Shown here in pieces: positions 1 to 61,018 of a stretch of 61,018 bases of DNA. Made by a program: the position numbers and the translations under genes. The notes under the pieces were generated by a model that saw nothing but the letters and a program-made list of their open reading frames with translations, was not told the origin of the DNA and ran no database searches. The DNA is from a virus. Its lineage: Duplodnaviria; Caudoviricetes. The number at the start of each line of letters is the position of its first letter. Position 1 is the stretch's first letter. The stretch spans positions 1 to 61,018 of the IMG/VR virus record IMGVR_UViG_3300012209_000002. The stretch is one strand, 5' to 3'.

Positions 1-123
1 ATCGCCAGCCCCTACGGCTGCACCTGGGAAGAGTTGCGCAACGATCTCAAGCTGATGTGGCGTGAAACCACCCGCGCGTCCAACTGGCTCATGACCGAAC
101 TCTACACGCGCGATTGCCGGCGC
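1..123. repeat. Terminal overlap (identical to 60896-61018); circular assembly
   Basis: First 123 nt ATCGCCAGCC...GCCGGCGC are identical to the last 123 nt, and an ORF reads through the junction. Confidence 0.97.
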
Positions 124-1035
124 GCGGGCGAGGAGAAGATGCCCCCGATGCAGCCCATCGACTTCTATACGGAGCTGAAGCGTTTCCCGGCATTGCCCCC
201 GCAGACCCGCGTGTCGCTGGCTCAAAGCTGCACCAAGAAATACAAAGCATTGCGTCGGGACGTGATCTGGACCTGTGCCAAGAGCCTGCCTAGTTTCCGT
301 TACCCCGTCCCTTTCCCCGTTCACAATCAGAGTTGGAGCGTGCGCATCGAAAAGGGACGGGCAATTCTCCGGGTGCGTATCGGCGAGGGCTGGCGCGAAC
401 TCCGTCTCAAGAGCGGCCCGCAATTCCGGCGACAGTACCGCTCCGTGCAACTGATAGCGAGAGGCGAGGCGATTACCGGCGAGGCAGCCATTTACCAGCG
501 TCAGTTCGAGGGGAAGTCCGCGCTCATGGTCAAGATGGTGGCTTGGTTGCCGCGTACTCCAGTCACGGGACTCAAGCCGGATTCGGTGTTACCGGTCTAC
601 ACACGGAAAGACGCGCTCCTGCAAGCGGTCAACACCGAGGACGAAGTACTGTGGACCTACAATGCGGATCACTTGCGGAGGTGGAGCGAGGAACATCGCA
701 AGACTCTTCAGAGATTGGCGGACGACAACAAATTCGAGGCCCGGCCAGTTCCGAGCTTCACGGATCGCCGTACCGCCCTGGTGCGGAAGTATCGCGACCG
801 CATGGACTCGGCCACGCACGAGATCGCCGCGCAACTTGCCTCGTACGCCGCCCGCCGCAAGTTCGCCGTAATGCGCTACGATGACACGGAGCGGGGGTTC
901 TGCGAGAGCCTGCCGTGGTACCGTTTAAAGCTACTGATCGAGCAAAAGTGCGAGGCGCTGGGGATACGATTTGAAGCAGCAGGCCCAAAAGAGTCGGAAA
1001 CGAAAGAATCGGAAGCGAGAGAAAACCAGCAGTGA
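1..1035 (+). CDS. 3' part of nuclease-dead TnpB/Cas12f-like RNA-guided DNA-binding protein (full gene 60680->junction->1035, 416 aa)
   Basis: C-terminal region follows the TnpB/Cas12f pattern: LVRKYRDRMDSATHEIAAQLASYAARRKFAVMRYDD (bridge helix/RuvC-II) and LPWYRLKLLIEQKCEALGIRF. The RuvC-I GxDxG is replaced by PVYTRKD, and the protein ends before the C-terminal Zn finger/RuvC-III. Confidence 0.75.
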   Translation: MASPYGCTWEELRNDLKLMWRETTRASNWLMTELYTRDCRRAGEEKMPPMQPIDFYTELKRFPALPPQTRVSLAQSCTKKYKALRRDVIWTCAKSLPSFRYPVPFPVHNQSWSVRIEKGRAILRVRIGEGWRELRLKSGPQFRRQYRSVQLIARGEAITGEAAIYQRQFEGKSALMVKMVAWLPRTPVTGLKPDSVLPVYTRKDALLQAVNTEDEVLWTYNADHLRRWSEEHRKTLQRLADDNKFEARPVPSFTDRRTALVRKYRDRMDSATHEIAAQLASYAARRKFAVMRYDDTERGFCESLPWYRLKLLIEQKCEALGIRFEAAGPKESETKESEARENQQ

Positions 1036-1083
1036 CGTGGATTGAAATCGTTGGCATCGTTTACCGCGATATACTGTTTTCGA

Positions 1084-1304
1084 AGGTCACCGAGGTTAGC
1101 AGACCTAGGGGCAGAAACGCTGAGAACGCTTGCCGACTCAGTATGTGATTGCCCAAATACCGTAAAGTGTTTCGGGATATCTCAGCAGTGTAAAAGCGAG
1201 CGGTCCTGGAAAACGGCGAAAGTCCAGAAGGCTTGAGACCTGCCGTTTCGGTGAAGCGAGAGGCCCGGCGGAAGAGAAAGAGCCGAAACCGCTCGCAAGA
1301 TCGG
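1084..1304 (+). ncRNA. Putative guide scaffold RNA copy 1
   Basis: Hairpin AGGTC/GACCT with loop ACCGA..; stem CTGAG/CTCAG enclosing invariant loop AACGCTTGCCGA (1125-1136); GGGATA; GCGAGCGGT (1196-1204) pairs with ACCGCTCGC (1288-1296). Confidence 0.65.
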
Positions 1305-1334
1305 AAAACAATGAGAAAGAATAGCTTTGAGATT

Positions 1335-1479
1335 ACTGTCCTACCGTACAGGACAGTTCCGACGACGCCGGGAACGCTTGCCGACCCGGTCGCTCGGATA
1401 GATGCTGGTAAGTCTTGGGATATGTGCGGCTTGCCGCGCCAGCCCTGAGAGCGAGCGAAAGCGAAAACGCTCGCTACGG
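1335..1479 (+). ncRNA. Putative guide scaffold RNA copy 2 with fused first repeat
   Basis: Hairpin ACTGTCCT/AGGACAGT with loop ACCGTAC; stem CCGGG/CCCGG enclosing AACGCTTGCCGA (1373-1384); GCTGG/CCAGC; GGGATA; anti-repeat GAGCGAGCG (1449-1457) pairing with CGCTCGC-TACGG (1468-1479). Confidence 0.75.
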
Positions 1480-1650
1480 GCCAAGAAATGGTCTTTCCGC
1501 CATCCACGCCAACGGACTGAGAGCGAGCGCAAACGAAAACGCCCGCTGCGGGTACCTGGCGAAAGCGTAAAACGCGCGTCGGATCGGCAGGAAGATCGCT
1601 ACGGGGTGCCAGCATTGGCCGCTCGCCGCGGGATGGAGAATTGAATTTAC
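1468..1650 (+). CRISPR. Non-canonical mini-repeat/guide array cognate to scaffold 2 (consensus CGCTCGCTACGG)
   Basis: Repeats at 1468 CGCTCGCTACGG, 1540 CGCCCGCTGCGG, 1593 AGATCGCTACGG and 1620 CGCTCGCCGCGG, separated by largely unique sequence. Confidence 0.5.
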
Positions 1651-1804
1651 AGCCCACCGATTAGGGCTAGGCTAGACATACGCTGGAAACGCTTGCCGAT
1701 TCAGTAGCTCTGGCGAAGGCTGGTCCCACTCCTCGGGTTAGTTCTCGTTGAGTGGGCGTAAACACTCCAGATACCTCTTGAAGGGAGCAGCCTGGGGAGC
1801 GACC
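1651..1804 (+). ncRNA. Putative guide scaffold RNA copy 3
   Basis: Hairpin AGCCC/GGGCT with loop ACCGATTA; GCTAGA/TCTGGC; stem CTGGA/TTCAG enclosing AACGCTTGCCGA (1688-1699); GGCTG/CAGCC; anti-repeat GAGCGACC (1797-1804). Confidence 0.75.
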
Positions 1805-1859
1805 TTTGACATTCCAGAGGCAGTTGCGGGGCACATCGCGGCTTGCGGCAACCTTGGCC

Positions 1860-2041
1860 GATCGCATCGGGACCGTCTCTATTTTCGAATCCCGGGAATG
1901 TCGCATCGGTTCAGGTCGCGTCGGGAGCCGCTTCGAGGCGCCGGTGCTATCCAACGCCAATCTATCTTTTCCCCGTCTCTTACTCCATACTTGCGGTTTT
2001 AGATCGTTAGGGTCGTTTCGGTCGGTTACGGGTCGCGTCGG
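1860..2041 (+). repeat. Cluster of GGTCGCNTCGG mini-repeats downstream of scaffold 3
   Basis: Copies at 1860, 1899, 1914, 2011 and 2031 (another at 2278), all on the + strand, irregular spacing. Confidence 0.65.
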
Positions 2042-2055
2042 GAGAGGTTGCCATC

Positions 2056-2277
2056 GTGTCGGTCAATGCGGATCTCTTGTGTCTATTCACCGAGTTGCGC
2101 CAGGAGATCCGCGATTCCAACCTCGAACGCCGGGAATCGGAGAGGGCCTTGGATCTTCGGTTGCGGCGGCTGGAAATTGCGCTAGTGCGGCATCGGGTGC
2201 GGGCGCGGATGTTAACAGCGGCGTGCGGGGCGGGAGCCAGCGCGGCCACGCACCTATTCGCGAAATATTACCATTAG
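2056..2277 (+). CDS. Small hypothetical protein, possibly lysis-associated
   Basis: 73 aa, GTG start after GGAGAGG; coiled N-terminus and weakly hydrophobic C-terminus. Confidence 0.55.
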   Translation: MSVNADLLCLFTELRQEIRDSNLERRESERALDLRLRRLEIALVRHRVRARMLTAACGAGASAATHLFAKYYH

Positions 2278-2327
2278 GGTCGCGTCGGGTAAGGTCACTC
2301 TGCGGAGTCGCCGAGGAGCATCTGAAG

Positions 2328-2588
2328 ATGAACATCGTGAATTCGGCAAAAGGCGAACTGGTGCAAACGGTTCTGCGCAAGATTGTCGACGGCAATACCG
2401 GCAGCACTCTGTTAGGCGGTGTGGCCGTGGCAATTCTGGCCTCGGGCGCCAGCTTTCCCGATTTGTTTTCGACGGATCAAAGTAAACTCGCGCATGCCTG
2501 GGGGCTGGCGATCGGCGGGGCGATTCTGGGCGTCTGGGGCTGGAAGATCGGCCGCAAGCCCGTCGCTCCCGCGCCGCCCGCTGTGTAG
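2328..2588 (+). CDS. Holin-like membrane protein
   Basis: 86 aa from ATG after GAGGAG; two hydrophobic helices (TLLGGVAVAILASGA, WGLAIGGAILGVWGW) and a basic C-terminus. Confidence 0.55.
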   Translation: MNIVNSAKGELVQTVLRKIVDGNTGSTLLGGVAVAILASGASFPDLFSTDQSKLAHAWGLAIGGAILGVWGWKIGRKPVAPAPPAV

Positions 2589-2870
2589 GTCGCTTCGGGG
2601 TGCGTCTGTCGCCTCGACATCGTCCTGATTTGCAGGTTGCTTCGTGCAAGGGCCGATTGGACGCAAAACTACTGTGATTTGGGCCGCTTCGGAATAAGCG
2701 TGCAGGTAACGTCGCTTCAGGATAATCCTCGCGTGGATTGCCGGTCGCCTCGGAGTATGCTGCCCGCCCCCGGTCGCTTCGGTGCTTTGATCGGCTTGGG
2801 TAGTCGCCTCGGGAACGAGGAATACGGGCCGCGCAGGTCGCTTTGTCTTAATGTACCGGCCATTGGACCG
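2588..2870 (+). CRISPR. Non-canonical array of nine 11-nt repeats (GGTCGCYTCGG) with mostly 17-23 nt spacers
   Basis: Repeats start at 2588, 2607, 2635, 2682, 2710, 2743, 2772, 2802 and 2836; spacers are 8, 17, 36, 17, 22, 18, 19 and 23 nt; intergenic between convergent genes. Confidence 0.65.
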
Positions 2871-2877
2871 ATAGCGG

Positions 2878-5202
2878 CTATTGAGCGGCGGCCTGCTTCG
2901 GTTCCGGTTGCTGCGATTTTGCCTCTTGTGCCACCCGCGCGGTTAGTGCCGTTGCTGCGGCGGTCCATGCTGGCGTGCGTACGGGCAGTGTCATAGCTTG
3001 AGTCAACAGTTTTGCTCCACCGGGGCTGAATAAGATCCGCGATCCCAACCAAGGCAAGCCGACGGCCCCGGTTATCTCCAATGCCGCTTGTCCCAATGCC
3101 GCTTGCTTAAACCCTCCGGTAATTGCCGTCACCAAAGCGTGCGCAACCGTTCCGTAAGCGCCTAATGCGTACCAACTGGAAGAAGTACCCGAAGGATTCA
3201 TAATCCGGCTGACCCGCTTGGATGCCAGCATGAACTTATCCAAATCCCCGGTGAGCTGCTTGCCGAACAACAGCTCCTTGGTTTCCGGCCCCAGTCTGTT
3301 CCAGTCGGCCGCAATCCCGGCGCTCCGTCCGAATCCGCCTTCTTTCGTGGATTTATCGATCAGCCCTTCCAGAAACGTGCGTCCGGTGGTTTTCAGTTCG
3401 TTTGGAGCGATCTTTCGCAACTCCCGCAAGGTATTCAACGAACGGTCGCCGCCTTGCACCAAGTTGTAGTAAAATTTCGCGGGCTCCTCGCTCATATCCT
3501 GAAACAGCTCATCCACGTTATGATAGGCACGCACCAATCGTCGGCCGGCTTGCAATTTGCCGAGAACGTCCGATCCCGCCCCCTGCACCGCTCGTTGGAA
3601 TTCGGTTTCTCCTTGCGCGATCGTCATCTTGGCGAGACGCTGCGATTGTGTGGAAAGATAAGGGCTGTCGCCATCGCGCGCCAGTGCTTTCACCGCGCTC
3701 AAGGTCCGGTCGAAATCCATGGCATTCATGAATTTCTTGTCCGAAGTCATCAATTCTTCGAGACTGCGCCATGCTGGGGAATTGGCCCGCCGCGCATCCG
3801 GCAAAGCCCGCTTCAGATCGTCGTAAACCGGCGCTAATCCTTGACGAATGGGCGCGAGATCGACGGGAGTTTCCAGAACGCTGTAAACGGGCACCTGGCG
3901 CGGCATTCCAGCGGGTGTCAGCGTGGCCAACGGGTTCGCTCCGGGCACCGTTTTCGTTCCGGTCTGCACGGTTTGTCGGTTAACCGCTGTCGATTGCCGC
4001 ACCTCGTTGTAGAGTCGATCGGCTTTCCCTTTTAACTGCGCGGTCAGACGAATTCGTCGCTGAATCAACGCCTGTCCCGCGCCGTAAGGATCGGTGACTT
4101 GTCCTCCTGCCCGCGCCGCCAGTTGCTTTTCTTTGCCGGCTAACGCTTCTTCGGTCGCCATACGGGCCTTACTGGCGCGGATGCCCGAGCCCGGCAGACT
4201 TTCCATAGTCTGCTCCACCCGCTTCAATCCGGGATGGCCCGTCCGCTGTCCAATGCTCAATGGCACGTCTTTCTCGATGGACTGAACGGCGGCTTCTTCC
4301 ACCGGGTTATAGACATTGCGCACGGCCGGTTCCAAACGGATTCCTTTGGGCAGCAATTTGGCCGCAGACGGCGCCAGCAATTCGAGCGTATGGGCCGCGC
4401 CCGCACCGTAGCGTCCTGCGCGAAAGTCTTCTCCGGCCTGTACCGCACCTGGACCGGCTATCGGCAAATACGATGCAGCGCGATATCCCAAACCGGCAAT
4501 CCCCGGCTCTTTCTTAGACTTCTCGTACATTTCCCGCTGCTGCCCGTACATCGCACGGCCGGCTTGAATCGGATTCTTCGCTGCCTCTCCGATCGCAGCC
4601 GGCAGATTGGAAATGTCCCCCCAGAGCGTACCCCAAAATCCTTTTGGCTGCATCGCTGTGTTTTGCAAGCCCAATTGCACGGCATTGGCTTTTTCCTTAA
4701 GGGGCAATGCTTTAAATGCCGGATCGTAGGCATCCAGCACCTTGATCTTTTCGATTCCAGGCAATTGCCGGAAGTTCGGGTCGGCGAAGATCTTACTCAA
4801 CTCGTCGGCCCCGCTTGACTGTTCGCCAGTTCTTTGCGTTTGATCCACGATTAGTTTGCCCGATTTGTCTACCAGCCGGTCGCCTTCCCAATGCGGCGCT
4901 TCCTCGGTCGCATACCGGGATTCTTTGGAAAAGTATCTGTGATACGGCGTTTTGTAGGTATCGGGGAAGTGTGCGCTGCCACCGCTCTTAACTCGCGTCT
5001 CCCGTTCCGCCATAGCTTTTGTGTCCCGAAAGAATCCGCGCATGTCGTAGTTAGAGGTCGGCGATTCGGTCCATGGGATCTTATTACTCTGCACCCAGAT
5101 TTGGAATTTCTTCTCTTCATCCGGCGGTAGTTTGGTGAGGTACGGTCCGGGTTTGGCAAAAGGAGACGGCGAAGTAAGTTGCTCGCTCAGTTCGTCAGCC
5201 AC
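2878..5202 (-). CDS. Putative virion ejection/internal (DNA transfer) protein
   Basis: 774 aa, A/G/Q-rich helical protein at the distal end of the virion operon, as in podoviruses. Confidence 0.55.
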   Translation of the reverse strand: MADELSEQLTSPSPFAKPGPYLTKLPPDEEKKFQIWVQSNKIPWTESPTSNYDMRGFFRDTKAMAERETRVKSGGSAHFPDTYKTPYHRYFSKESRYATEEAPHWEGDRLVDKSGKLIVDQTQRTGEQSSGADELSKIFADPNFRQLPGIEKIKVLDAYDPAFKALPLKEKANAVQLGLQNTAMQPKGFWGTLWGDISNLPAAIGEAAKNPIQAGRAMYGQQREMYEKSKKEPGIAGLGYRAASYLPIAGPGAVQAGEDFRAGRYGAGAAHTLELLAPSAAKLLPKGIRLEPAVRNVYNPVEEAAVQSIEKDVPLSIGQRTGHPGLKRVEQTMESLPGSGIRASKARMATEEALAGKEKQLAARAGGQVTDPYGAGQALIQRRIRLTAQLKGKADRLYNEVRQSTAVNRQTVQTGTKTVPGANPLATLTPAGMPRQVPVYSVLETPVDLAPIRQGLAPVYDDLKRALPDARRANSPAWRSLEELMTSDKKFMNAMDFDRTLSAVKALARDGDSPYLSTQSQRLAKMTIAQGETEFQRAVQGAGSDVLGKLQAGRRLVRAYHNVDELFQDMSEEPAKFYYNLVQGGDRSLNTLRELRKIAPNELKTTGRTFLEGLIDKSTKEGGFGRSAGIAADWNRLGPETKELLFGKQLTGDLDKFMLASKRVSRIMNPSGTSSSWYALGAYGTVAHALVTAITGGFKQAALGQAALEITGAVGLPWLGSRILFSPGGAKLLTQAMTLPVRTPAWTAAATALTARVAQEAKSQQPEPKQAAAQ

Positions 5203-58330: not shown

Positions 58331-59110
58331 ATGATCCTCATCGACCGCCGCGAAGACGAGCAATTGACCCGCGAACTGGCTCGCTTCCACTTGCCCTTCG
58401 CCTGCGTCGAGTTGCCCTGGGGCGATTGCTCGTTCGCGGGCAAAGGGCCGGACGGTCCGCTCCTGATCGGCTTCGAACGCAAGCGCCTGCCCGATCTGAT
58501 CCATTCCATGCAGGACCGCCGCCTTGCCGGTTCCCAGCTCGTGGGCATGCGCCAGCTCTATGCCCGTGTCGGCCTGGTGGTGGAAGGACTGTGGCGCCCC
58601 GGCCAGGAAGGCACGATCGAGGTGCAGGATGGGCATGGAGAATGGGTCGAGTATTATCATCGGAAAAAGCAGGGGATTGCCTGGCGCCAGATCGACTCGT
58701 TCCTGCAATCGCTGGTGGAGCTGTGCGGGGTGGAGGTATGGCGCACGGCCACCGTGCGGGAGACGGCGCACTTGTACTGTTCCCGGTACCGCTGGTGGCA
58801 GAAAGACTATGCGCTACATCGCAGCCACCGGCAGATCCACGCGCTCGATCCACTGGCGGCGCGCGGGGGAAGAGTGGAATTCGGGCGCGAACCCAATGCG
58901 ATCGTGCGAGTCGCGGCGCAGATCCCCGGCATCGACCGGAAGGCGTGGTCAATTGGGGAACAGTTTGGGTCGGTGTGGGAAATGACCGATGCTTCGATAG
59001 AGCGCTGGGAAAGCGTGTGGTGGGACGACGGCAAAGGGAAGCGCAAACAGTTCTCGCGGGAGAGCGCGAGAAAGATCGTAGCGTGGTTGCGGGGATTGGA
59101 AGTCGCATGA
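58331..59110 (+). CDS. ERCC4-family structure-specific nuclease
   Basis: ILIDRRE, GDCSF, FERKRLPDL..S, LVVEG, HhH-like QIPGIDRKA. Confidence 0.88.
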   Translation: MILIDRREDEQLTRELARFHLPFACVELPWGDCSFAGKGPDGPLLIGFERKRLPDLIHSMQDRRLAGSQLVGMRQLYARVGLVVEGLWRPGQEGTIEVQDGHGEWVEYYHRKKQGIAWRQIDSFLQSLVELCGVEVWRTATVRETAHLYCSRYRWWQKDYALHRSHRQIHALDPLAARGGRVEFGREPNAIVRVAAQIPGIDRKAWSIGEQFGSVWEMTDASIERWESVWWDDGKGKRKQFSRESARKIVAWLRGLEVA

Positions 59111-59114
59111 GATC

Positions 59115-59192
59115 GGTCGCGTTGGTGTATCGAGCCGTGGACGGAGCAGAAGTCGCGTCGGAAAGTTCTCGGATGGAATTTGGTTGCGTCGG
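59115..59192 (+). repeat. Mini-repeats upstream of scaffold 4
   Basis: GGTCGCGTTGG at 59115, AGTCGCGTCGG at 59151, GGTTGCGTCGG at 59182. Confidence 0.55.
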
Positions 59193-59244
59193 GTTGATCG
59201 AGGAACGGATTTCGGGGAGCGAAGCAAGGATATTTACGGACTAC

Positions 59245-59392
59245 GGGCTACCGAACAAGCCCAGGCCGACTAACGCCGGGAACGCTTGCCGACCCGGTCG
59301 CGTTGGCGAAGGCGGTTCTCCGGAAAACCGGGGATGAAACGCTTGGGATAACCCGGCTGGAACCAACGCCGGGTCCGCCCCAGGAGTGACTG
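59245..59392 (+). ncRNA. Putative guide scaffold RNA copy 4
   Basis: Hairpin GGGCT/AGCCC with loop ACCGAACA; GCCGAC/GTTGGC; CCGGG/CCCGG enclosing AACGCTTGCCGA (59281-92); GGCGG/CCGCC; GGGATA; anti-repeat GAGTGACTG (59384-92). Confidence 0.75.
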
Positions 59393-59528
59393 ACTACCTC
59401 GCGGGAGGATTCGGCAGTGAACTCGGGTTGGAGTGTGGTATCGAAGAACGAGTTGAGTCGGGACCAGTAACGAGTCGCTAAGATTTAGTTACTTCGGAAT
59501 GTTCGTTCAAGTGCAAAAAGGAGAGCGC

Positions 59529-59921
59529 ATGGCATCGCCATCGAAAGACAGATTGAGACGCGCGAACGCGAGCAAACTGACTCCTGTCGAGTCCATGGAG
59601 AATCTGGAGACGCGCAAGCGCCTGGAGTCCCTGTTGCGGGAAGCGCTTGTCCTCAAGGTCCGTATGTCCGCCGACGAGGAGGATTTGGAGCGCATCAAGA
59701 CCGAGCTGGGCGGTCTCGTGCAAGCGCTCAATCTGGCTGGGGTGCGCTCGGGCCTGGTCGGGTTCGAGTGCTCGGGATGGCAGCGGCGCAGCAATCTGCA
59801 AAAGTCTCTGCTGGTGGATCTGCTCTCGCGTTATGGAGCCCCGCTGGAGGAGCTGGAGCGGTGCTACACGACCGGGGAGCCGTATCTGATGACCAGATTG
59901 CATGTGTTCGATGCGGAGTAG
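59529..59921 (+). CDS. Hypothetical protein
   Basis: RBS AAGGAG; 130 aa. Confidence 0.6.
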   Translation: MASPSKDRLRRANASKLTPVESMENLETRKRLESLLREALVLKVRMSADEEDLERIKTELGGLVQALNLAGVRSGLVGFECSGWQRRSNLQKSLLVDLLSRYGAPLEELERCYTTGEPYLMTRLHVFDAE

Positions 59922-59925
59922 AAAA

Positions 59926-60183
59926 ATGAACATTGAAAACATAAAACCTGGCGAGAAACCCGATTGTGTGATTGCGTTAAATAAAGACGATCCGTGTTAT
60001 CGGCCATCCGAGGGCGTAATCGACAATAAGTGCTTGCTATGCGAAGCCACTGTAGCACTGGATCGGGCTAGCCAAGCATTGATGCCTTTGCCGGTTTATT
60101 GTTTGACATGTTTCATGCAATTCAGAAACGCCAATGTTGTGATTAGAAGAGCAGCACCCGTGCATGTGTTCGATGCGGAGTAA
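59926..60183 (+). CDS. Small Cys-rich protein (inserted cassette)
   Basis: CLLC..CLTC; AT-rich; bounded by 22-nt direct repeats. Confidence 0.55.
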   Translation: MNIENIKPGEKPDCVIALNKDDPCYRPSEGVIDNKCLLCEATVALDRASQALMPLPVYCLTCFMQFRNANVVIRRAAPVHVFDAE

Positions 60184-60184
60184 C

Positions 60185-60228
60185 AGTCGCTTCGGTAAAA
60201 ACGATGTGGAGTAGGACAGTCATTTCGG
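60185..60228 (+). repeat. Two mini-repeats cognate to scaffold 4
   Basis: AGTCGCTTCGG at 60185 and AGTCATTTCGG at 60218, 22-nt spacer. Confidence 0.55.
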
Positions 60229-60250
60229 AACCGGAAAGTAAGTGAACGAT

Positions 60251-60511
60251 ATGCCCATGAAATCCCCCGCTGAAGATCAAGAAGAAGCTGCTCGGCTGAT
60301 TGGTTACGGGGCAATCTGGCTACGGCGCGTGGACAATTATGCCGTTGTGGAGATCGAACATGGCGGAGAATGGCATGAAATCGTTCGAGTAGCGATTGAC
60401 GAGAATTTCTCGCATTCGATTTATCCGGTTGGCATAATCTCGGTACTGGCGCGTAAGGGAGTATTGGAAACTAAGTTAGGCCAGCGATTGTGCAAGGCGG
60501 GACTGTTGTGA
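60251..60511 (+). CDS. Hypothetical protein
   Basis: 86-aa ORF. Confidence 0.5.
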   Translation: MPMKSPAEDQEEAARLIGYGAIWLRRVDNYAVVEIEHGGEWHEIVRVAIDENFSHSIYPVGIISVLARKGVLETKLGQRLCKAGLL

Positions 60512-60678
60512 TGCGGTTGAAGCGTTTATGGAACCGCCGGTTAGAGAATGTCCGGCTGCGTTTCAAACGAATCGCGGTCTGCCGCTGGAAAGGGCACCGC
60601 TGGATTCAGACTTACCGGCATCTGGAAGATTTGGAGCCTTTGTTCGTGTGTACCCGCTGTTACGAAGAGATGGATTGA
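60511..60678 (+). CDS. Small Cys/His protein
   Basis: CRWKGHRW..CTRC. Confidence 0.5.
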   Translation: MRLKRLWNRRLENVRLRFKRIAVCRWKGHRWIQTYRHLEDLEPLFVCTRCYEEMD

Positions 60679-60679
60679 T

Positions 60680-61018
60680 ATGTCCGTGAAATCCCCCGAA
60701 TCCCCCGAGCCCGATGTCGTCGCAGTCGAAGTCGTCTGCTGCGATTGCCGGAAGCGCCGCAAGACCAAACTCACCCCGGCCGGCAATCCGCGCACGCCCA
60801 TGGGCTGGCACAAGCACGACAAGGACGCCGAATCCGTGGTCTATTGCCCCGACTGCTGGGCCAAGCGCTATCTGCTCCGCGCCGTCGCCATGCCCATCGC
60901 CAGCCCCTACGGCTGCACCTGGGAAGAGTTGCGCAACGATCTCAAGCTGATGTGGCGTGAAACCACCCGCGCGTCCAACTGGCTCATGACCGAACTCTAC
61001 ACGCGCGATTGCCGGCGC
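60680..61018 (+). CDS. 5' part of the nuclease-dead TnpB/Cas12f-like protein, with N-terminal zinc finger
   Basis: MSVKSPESPEPDVVAVEVVCCDC...YCPDCWAKRYLLRAVAMPIASPYG runs in frame into position 1; missed by the ORF track. Confidence 0.8.
   Translation, partial: MSVKSPESPEPDVVAVEVVCCDCRKRRKTKLTPAGNPRTPMGWHKHDKDAESVVYCPDCWAKRYLLRAVAMPIASPYGCTWEELRNDLKLMWRETTRASNWLMTELYTRDCRR
60896..61018. repeat. Terminal overlap identical to 1-123
   Basis: Exact 123-nt match. Confidence 0.97.

Follow-up and report, generated by a model that had tools for sequence, protein, structure and literature searches.

What are the four structured RNA elements carried by a 61,018-nucleotide (nt) phage genome, and what do they serve? 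The genome is IMG/VR record IMGVR_UViG_3300012209_000002 (Caudoviricetes), and the window analyzed here is the whole record, positions 1 to 61,018. Three elements lie close together from position 1084 on, and the fourth lies near the other end. The original prediction, made from the sequence, took them for paralogous scaffolds resembling omegaRNA or trans-activating CRISPR RNA (tracrRNA). We consider it very probable that they are paralogous guide-RNA scaffold genes of an adjacent, cleavage-dead phage protein of 416 amino acids (aa) that resembles Cas12f and TnpB. A covarying helix between anti-repeat and repeat joins each scaffold, in cis, to a CRISPR repeat, as in a natural single-guide RNA.

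The 12-mer AACGCTTGCCGA occurs exactly at 1125, 1373, 1688 and 59281, each time on the + strand, as predicted. Because the window is the whole virus record, these are all the copies that the record has. When up to two mismatches were allowed, the window had 16 matches where 7.6 were expected, a number that none of 100 shuffles reached. The 12-mer is the loop of a larger unit, and the units (c1 to c4) extend beyond the stretch 1084-1804, with c3 and its repeat running to 1830 and c4 lying at 59245-59405. Their parts are given below. Bit scores are those of two covariance models, the first built from five sequences and the second from 29.

1084-1229, + strand: copy c1 (first model 80.9 bits, second only 35.7 bits)
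1084-1088/1102-1106, + strand: helix P1 of c1; outer stem 1109-1113/1150-1154, loop 1125-1136, TTTCGGG-ATAT 1170-1180
1253-1305, + strand: putative degenerate c2-type repeat with an insertion (GAAGCGAG...CGAAACCGCTCGCAAGATCGG), from repeat families and a reading of the sequence
1335-1444, + strand: scaffold of copy c2 (second model 87.9 bits; alignment)
1335-1342/1350-1357, + strand: P1 of c2; outer stem 1358-1362/1394-1398, loop 1373-1384
1413-1419, + strand: anti-repeat TCTTGGG of c2; GATAT 1419-1423, hairpin 1424-1439, CAGCC 1440-1444
1445-1588, + strand: mini CRISPR array after c2; repeat 1445-1480, spacer 1481-1516, repeat 1517-1552, second spacer from 1553
1651-1830, + strand: copy c3 (second-model match 1651-1815, 45.3 bits; alignment)
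1651-1655/1664-1668, + strand: P1 of c3; outer stem 1671-1676/1709-1714, loop 1688-1699, inserted hairpin 1718-1752
1765-1770, + strand: anti-repeat CTCCAG of c3, followed by ATAC; hairpin 1775-1787, CAGCC 1788-1792
1791-1830, + strand: cis repeat of c3, with the guide from 1831
59245-59405, + strand: copy c4 (first model 93.3 bits, second 69.9 bits)
59245-59249/59258-59262, + strand: P1 of c4; outer stem 59265-59270/59302-59307, loop 59281-59292
59317-59334 (approximate), + strand: inserted hairpin of c4; anti-repeat CTTGGG 59342-59347, GATAA, hairpin 59352-59373
59379-59405, + strand: cis repeat of c4, with the guide from 59406 and then more ...TCGGG motifs to about 59494

The stems around the loop differ from copy to copy. 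From c1 to c4, P1 reads AGGTC/GACCT, ACTGTCCT/AGGACAGT, AGCCC/GGGCT and GGGCT/AGCCC; the outer stem reads GGGCA/TGCCC, TCCGA/TCGGA, GCTAGA/TCTGGC and GCCGAC/GTTGGC; and the stem closing the loop reads CTGAG/CTCAG, CCGGG/CCCGG, CTGGA/TTCAG and CCGGG/CCCGG. We counted covariation over 17 pairs in a small set consisting of the four window copies and one relative. In that set, 92.7% of cells were paired, compared with 70.3% in shuffles, and partners slid out of register paired at 47% or less. Both sides had changed in 13 of the 17 pairs, a count reached by 0 of 500 shuffles. The compensatory change that had been predicted for P1 and the outer stem was therefore found. The predicted versions of the loop-closing stem are all present too, but they represent three independent versions and not four, because c2 and c4 share an identical 29-nt core (1365-1393 = 59273-59301). 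A GATA motif had also been assigned to each copy; in c3, the one that fits the family consensus is CCAGATAC at about 1768-1774, after the inserted hairpin, and not GGGTTAG at 1735.

Does the same RNA accompany related proteins elsewhere? The 416-aa protein had 292 relatives at E ≤ 0.001 in a word-indexed search, and 1194 clusters at 50% identity, at the same threshold, in an exhaustive one. We examined 29 viral loci, 13 genome loci (one of which is this phage) and 80 metagenome loci, the last of which were not used in model building. The first covariance model detected the RNA in 22 of the 29 viral loci and in 11 of the 12 other genome loci. With the second model it was detected in 35/38 loci (23/26 viral and 12/12 genome) and in 68 of the 80 metagenome loci. 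The matches, 39 in the former set and 76 in the latter, were all on the strand of the gene and nearly always just downstream of it, and in most loci the scaffold began no more than about 100 nt from where the protein match ended. Most loci without a match, including eight of the 12 from metagenomes, end within about 200 nt of the gene. Stray matches of the second model were limited to three weak ones (E 0.6-0.9) in about 370 kb. The co-occurrence of RNA and protein spans proteins down to about 30% identity. Scanning IMG/VR for exact matches to a core pattern drawn from the four window copies gave 0; the relatives differ in sequence.

Several copies per locus were also seen in other places, with four tandem and near-identical copies in locus L138, three in L074, and two each in L008, L081 and L098. 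The window is unusual in that its four copies have diverged. The four units of L138 (L138:815-1816) each comprise scaffold, repeat and guide with a period of about 251 nt, and the first two are duplicates, guide included.

From 5' to 3', the RNA consists of P1 with its ACCG loop, AG, and the outer stem P2 enclosing P3 with the near-invariant ACGCTTGCCG loop. These are followed by GAA, a short P4 hairpin (nTAAA loop), the anti-repeat nnnGGG and GATAT, and then by a small hairpin P6, CnGCC and the CRISPR repeat. The first six bases of the repeat are the pairing partner of the anti-repeat, which lies immediately 5' of GATAT. The resulting 6-bp helix was paired at 98.2% in the 39 copies and at 99.7% in the 76 metagenome copies, and five of its six pairs had changed on both sides. 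The remainder of the repeat forms a hairpin (…AAGTGACC…GGTCACTT…) that ends in CGGG and is followed by the spacer. The motif RAGYGA had been read as the end of the RNA, which does not hold; in c2 to c4 it forms the 5' strand of the repeat's own hairpin, with the guide starting 20–30 nt beyond it.

Covariation holds in the larger alignments as well, in keeping with the selection on RNA structure that the original prediction had proposed. Across the 39 copies, 87.7% of cells were paired (59.4% when shuffled), 27 of 28 pairs had changed on both sides, and slid partners paired at 50% or less. The corresponding values for the 76 metagenome copies were 89.0% (68.6% when shuffled), 26 of 28 pairs, and 48% or less. 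The P4 hairpin, which appears with a shifting register in single-sequence folds of most copies, was left out of these counts. In a blind all-against-all scan of alignment columns, the modelled pairs ranked on top. G-U pairs outnumbered A-C pairs by about 2:1 (62 vs 26 and 77 vs 41), as expected if the + strand is the RNA. Only one strong pair lies outside the modelled helices: a base in the P1 loop (column 12) covaries with the base just 5' of the anti-repeat (column 171), as C-G versus U-A, with 92% paired. This may be a tertiary or pseudoknot contact.

The repeat at the end of the scaffold is often the first of several. Most viral relatives have arrays in which repeats of 36-37 nt recur about every 72 nt, and in locus L006 the scaffold runs into an array made of the cis repeat and 13 further 36-nt repeats. 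At least one further full repeat was found within 2.5 kb in 44 of 109 uncut copies. The others have the cis repeat alone, which suggests that they are natural single-guide RNAs. In the window, the two 36-nt repeats of the array after c2 are 72 nt apart and 89% identical; the count of further full repeats placed the second at 1516. A different tandem repeat, of 18/36 nt, was seen upstream of the effector gene in two loci (L012:11-440 and L125:11-101, with 16 and 5 copies of the word AGGTCTGCG). It is unrelated to the CRISPR repeat.

The helix joining scaffold and repeat also bears on whether the elements have anything to do with the protein. A structured RNA or single-stranded DNA element unrelated to it, such as a regulatory small RNA, a ribozyme or a replication element, would agree with the Rfam results insofar as these include weak sub-threshold matches. 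There were 0 gathering-level matches in the whole window, as a scan suggested along with the original prediction revealed, and two sub-threshold matches in 1000-2100, to hammerhead type III (15.4 bits against a cutoff of 48.5) and to SOX2OT, both of which we dismissed. An unrelated element would not be expected to keep company with the protein gene on the same strand in 35/38 and 68/80 loci, across such diverged proteins, nor to covary with a CRISPR repeat. We regard it as very unlikely.

The protein in question is encoded directly upstream of c1. The record has direct terminal repeats (60896-61018 is a copy of 1-123), is circularly permuted, and encodes a terminase large subunit and a helicase. 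The effector gene spans the record ends (60680-61018, then 124-1035) and yields the 416-aa protein. Its two parts appear in the lists of open reading frames (ORFs) as follows.

60680-61018, + strand: 5' part of the effector gene, with an N-terminal CxxC...CxxC zinc ribbon
1-1035, + strand: 3' part of the effector gene, with the stop codon at 1033-1035

The terminal repeat splits the gene, and gene callers run on the linear record would give two fragments. The same phage is present as a 61,037-nt contig (L034) binned in a public metagenome-assembled genome labelled Rugosimonospora. This host label is doubtful, since nearly all other genome relatives are Acidobacteriota (Bryobacterales). A search for sequencing runs listed no RNA run for this soil phage. 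Four DNA runs yielded only short pieces of it, at low depth and essentially identical, and showed no variant arrays.

No Pfam or NCBIfam match was obtained for the 416-aa protein. We disregarded its sole PHROG match (an endolysin family, E 0.016) as weak. There is a weak match to zinc_ribbon_6 (E 6.6e-4) at the N-terminal zinc ribbon, whose four Cys residues are at least 90% conserved in 49 diverse relatives. When a family profile was compared with the PDB, it matched the solved Cas12f 9nzq at E 6.6e-7, and a wider profile did so at 1.4e-13. The wider profile also matched 9i8y (7e-12), the AsCas12f-type chains 7wju and 8j12 (about 2e-9) and the dead Cas12f 9n9c (3.8e-7), over profile positions of about 57-407; TnpB chains were matched by the family profiles too. 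An ESM Atlas model aligned to TnpB/Cas12f clusters with template-modelling (TM) scores of 0.63-0.71 over residues ~60-410. The kinship in sequence and fold concerns the WED-REC-RuvC core. Together with the same-strand co-occurrence, these matches support the proposal of paralogous scaffolds of the omegaRNA or tracrRNA kind.

The protein is short of what a nuclease of this family has. Alignments to Cas12f chains of 433 and 500 residues stop at residue 373-375, so that the last 60-125 Cas12f residues have no counterpart and both the TNB zinc finger and RuvC-III are absent. The gene ends right after a RuvC-II-like ...RYDD...LPWYRL...GIRFE and an acidic tail. We found no match to the TNB domain PF07282 in the 416-aa protein, and one weak match (E 0.0068) among the 49 relatives. 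A complete RuvC triad (D, E, D) was not found in the alignments: the RuvC-I Asp (GVDxG in Cas12f) aligns to the variable Y272 and the RuvC-II Glu to D/N/E366, and at neither position does conservation reach 90% in the 49 diverse relatives. The protein is probably nuclease-dead, binding without cutting.

Could it be an ordinary cleaving miniature effector of type V-F (Cas12f) all the same, with the scaffolds as tracrRNAs and the missing parts of RuvC supplied by dimerisation or by another protein? The kinship in sequence and fold is with active Cas12f, relatives have real arrays of up to 14 repeats, and an acidic residue often stands at the RuvC-II position. A candidate partner is at hand as well, since an ERCC4-family nuclease gene (58331-59110, E 1.2e-8) ends about 135 nt before c4. 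However, the RuvC-I Asp position is not conserved, and RuvC-III and TNB are absent in 34/34 and 49/49 aligned relatives, which end at about the same point. An all-against-all comparison of ORFs of at least 60 aa, covering viral and genome loci L005-L046 and excepting frames that overlap the effector gene, found no neighbour gene shared by more than four loci, the ERCC4 gene included; this was an ORF comparison and not a domain scan of every neighbour. We therefore think a cleaving system unlikely. Since no neighbour gene is shared, the protein probably acts alone with its RNA.

The kinship with TnpB, and a guide placed 3' of the scaffold, would also suit omegaRNAs of a TnpB-type transposon (IS200/IS605-like) that had multiplied in the phage. 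However, c1 starts 48 nt after the stop codon and does not overlap the 3' end of the gene, the scaffolds are fused to CRISPR repeats and then arrays, and three copies out of four lack their own gene. The neighbour comparison of L005-L046 found no transposase or shared neighbour, although transposon ends were not searched for. In our judgment such an origin is highly improbable.

If the elements are guide-RNA scaffolds of a cleavage-dead protein, as we favor, each copy would be a natural single-guide RNA with its own guide, read on the + strand, with c2 carrying a further repeat and spacer. The protein would bind these RNAs, probably via the invariant loop and the ACCG and GATAT motifs. The RNA may then lead the protein to matching DNA, which would be bound without being cut, and the bound protein could block transcription or replication of a host or rival-element target. 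On this model the stems would have drifted by compensatory change while the likely protein-contact motifs stayed fixed, and the divergence of the stems would also keep four copies in a 61-kb genome from recombining. RNA-guided binding without cleavage, silencing a target, is the most likely function that the sequence suggests.

A number of observations weigh against this interpretation. Folding energies are unremarkable: z ranges from -0.8 to -2.2 for the + strand, no better than the -0.6 to -2.2 of the opposite one; the case for structure rests on covariation, not on folding energy. Covariance-model alignments are fitted to the model and hence favour the modelled structure, but the slid and shuffled controls and the blind column scan speak against an alignment artefact. 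Copy c1 has a divergent 3' module, fits the 3' half of the second model poorly (35.7 bits) and has an uncertain repeat assignment; it may be decaying, or it may work differently. There were 0 promoter-like (sigma-70) sites in either scanned region (1-3000 and 58900-61018), and the terminator-like sites numbered 0 in the former and two in the latter, neither of them at a copy. The loss of cleavage is read from alignments, and an acidic residue is often kept at position 366.

The target searches for the window guides weigh on the same side. We found no target in the phage itself: 23 guide starts of 16 nt, compared with the window at up to two mismatches, gave four non-self matches, two of which are the half-repeat discussed below, and reversed guides gave 0. 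The sharing of exact 12-mers with other parts of the window appears to be coincidental (a rough estimate of about 17, made without a shuffle control). BLAST of positions 1476-1640 against 301 Bryobacterales genomes produced nothing convincing as a host target; its best match (27/29 nt) straddles the spacer-repeat border and was rejected as a protospacer. No conclusion here depends on the one unpublished genome among those listed. Searching IMG/VR with the first 20-23 nt of one window spacer returned its own records only, as did one spacer each from L026 and L006.

Guides of the related loci were searched too. Cross-BLAST of array regions against all collected loci gave nothing beyond duplicates. 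Chromosomal single guides were compared with their own genomes over 21 nt at up to three mismatches, and those of L039, L035, L040 and L036 had no site there. The guide of L045 has one site, with 17 contiguous matches, inside an MFS transporter gene (L068:1504-1520) of its own genome at a distance of 3.4 Mb. There the guide is antisense to the mRNA, and the estimated chance expectation is about 0.001. Six chromosomal loci (L037, L041, L043, L096, L103 and L104) lie directly behind an AcrB-type RND efflux gene. Their guides are alike over the first 13-15 nt (GATCGCAATCAGGG) and have nothing in common after that, a pattern that suggests that the functional guide is short. In the three operons covered in full (L055, L056 and L057), the efflux-linked guide also agrees at 10-12 of 14 positions with the FDRNQGE codons of the TolC-like gene in the operon itself, where the 5' flank is T-rich; this resemblance is not significant on its own. 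A 13-nt match of the efflux guide in L050 lies in an unrelated intergenic region and was discarded.

A second kind of element raises a question of its own. The 12-nt half-repeat GGTCGCnTCGGG equals the 3' half of the repeat hairpin plus the CGGG tail, and it clusters beside the scaffolds, where 18 of its 28 + strand matches fall in 3% of the window; three matches are on the - strand. Its main occurrences are the following.

1860-2846, + strand: half-repeat cluster, with cores at 1861, 1900, 1915, 2012, 2032, 2279, 2589, 2608, 2683, 2711, 2744, 2773 and 2803
59115-59193, + strand: three half-repeats just upstream of c4, with cores at 59116, 59152 and 59183
60186-60195, + strand: lone exact half-repeat core GTCGCTTCGG, in the gap after an ORF ending at 60183

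Half-repeats between 2683 and 2837 follow one another about every 30 nt. Two small ORFs, 2056-2277 (73 aa) and 2328-2588 (86 aa), are bracketed exactly by the half-repeats at 2032, 2279 and 2589; neither has a Pfam match, and the second resembles a membrane protein. Short-word clusters were also found near the scaffold in other phage loci, with 14 copies in L005, 21 in L008, 14 in L013, nine in L024 and six in L031. In L005, L008, L013 and L024, the four that were compared, the word is the 3' half of the locus's own repeat hairpin. Read by eye, the half-repeat is complementary to the locus's own 5' half-repeat in five loci (GCGACC/GGTCGC in the window, AGCTTCC/GGAAGCT in L005, GGTGACC/GGTCAC in L008, ACGATC/GATCG in L013 and GGCTACC/GGTAGC in L024), although this would also follow from descent from the hairpin repeat alone.

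It is quite possible, though short of probable, that the half-repeats serve the phage as signals in DNA or RNA between small genes, for instance as promoters, terminators or processing sites, and look repeat-like by descent or through array decay. Several of them sit at gene borders: 2279 comes right after the stop of ORF 2056-2277, 2589 is at the stop of ORF 2328-2588, 2032 is ~13 nt before a GTG start, and 60186 follows the stop at 60183. The gaps between them are uneven, some holding whole ORFs and others only 12-15 nt, and the 16 nt that follow them gave no target. Signals of this kind fit less well with the confinement of the half-repeats to the + strand and the scaffold neighbourhood, with their regular spacing from 2683 to 2837, or with the clusters in five other phage loci and the match of the word to the locus's own hairpin in four of these. 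A more doubtful idea, which we put forward tentatively, is that the phage runs a split-repeat guide system. The scaffolds would carry the 5' half of the repeat, and dozens of 12-nt half-repeats, each with ~18 nt after it, would be minimal CRISPR RNAs that pair with a scaffold in trans. If true, this would be the most compact natural CRISPR-type array known, at ~30 nt per guide. Some of the units occur in the leaders of small phage genes or in the gaps between them, and a cleavage-dead Cas12f would then receive its guides from the phage's own messages.

Binding of DNA without cleavage by RNA-guided proteins is attracting interest at present, as TldR and dCas12f-sigmaE illustrate. The family described here is very large, lacks annotation, is covered by no Pfam or NCBIfam model, has proteins of ~400 aa and occurs in soil phages and Acidobacteriota; its guide-RNA architecture is now defined by covariation. 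Three ideas become directly testable: CRISPR-type silencing of hosts or rivals by a phage, the joining of a scaffold to a hairpin repeat, and half-repeat arrays as guides. A 416-aa protein with a natural single-guide RNA is also a compact candidate for programmable repression. The four diverged copies amount to a natural mutational map, which sets the fixed ACCG, ACGC, 12-nt loop and GGGATA apart from positions that need only pairing.

How does this compare with known systems? Cas12m and type IV systems, whose proteins are unrelated or only distantly related, interfere by DNA binding alone and silence rival elements without cutting. Engineered non-repetitive single-guide RNA arrays hold several scaffolds that differ in sequence and are alike in fold. 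These comparisons concern a possible mode of action and not membership.

By sequence, the closest solved relatives are type V-F Cas12f proteins (9nzq, 9i8y, 7wju and 8j12), and the effector is miniature in both cases. Type V-F systems are described, as here, with a long scaffold RNA whose anti-repeat forms a helix with the repeat. Their Cas12f is reported to have a complete RuvC and a TNB domain and to cut DNA, whereas both domains are missing here. The present arrangement also differs in joining the scaffold to the first repeat in cis, and in an anti-repeat whose partner is the 5' end of a hairpin-forming repeat. A preprint on a "Cas12 hacker" was set aside because it reportedly concerns an active nuclease. 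TldR proteins are likewise reported as small RNA-guided repressors that lost RuvC, some of them phage-borne, with the guide 3' of the scaffold. However, they are said to derive from TnpB with its omegaRNAs, to lack CRISPR arrays and to be associated with flagellin or opp genes, and neither association was seen here.

The dCas12f-sigmaE system (structure 9n9c), in the relevant passages of Hoffmann et al., Nature 2026 (PMC13472631), shares more with the window. Its protein is a nuclease-dead, C-terminally truncated relative of Cas12f, the guide is at the 3' end of the scaffold, and some loci have several tandem guide RNAs, as here; those in the sigmaE-linked loci are described there as similar in scaffold and guide sequences. 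In contrast, no rpoE (sigmaE) or helix-turn-helix neighbour was shared in the L005-L046 ORF comparison, which did not include a domain scan of every neighbour, and our profile matches the active Cas12f 9nzq (1.4e-13) better than 9n9c (3.8e-7). Those passages also report dCas12f-sigmaE without a tracrRNA-like species and mostly without arrays, whereas arrays are common here.

The closest published description that we found is another cluster in PMC13472631. That paper mentions nuclease-dead Cas12f next to CRISPR arrays. In the passages concerned the cluster is not characterised, and an extended-data figure illustrates it with a small number of neighbourhoods and a single example from Chitinophagaceae. 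The likeness, as far as those passages go, includes C-terminal truncations that remove part of RuvC and putative guide RNAs detected by covariance upstream of arrays. The six relatives that lie behind an AcrB-type RND gene are a further point of likeness on the present side. Phage carriage, an N-terminal zinc ribbon and half-repeat clusters are not mentioned in its passages on dead Cas12f. The family described here differs from what those passages convey in its carriers, which are phages and Acidobacteriota, in its N-terminal zinc ribbon, and in having four diverged scaffolds in one genome together with half-repeat clusters. Compared by text, the cluster of PMC13472631 and the present family may be one and the same.

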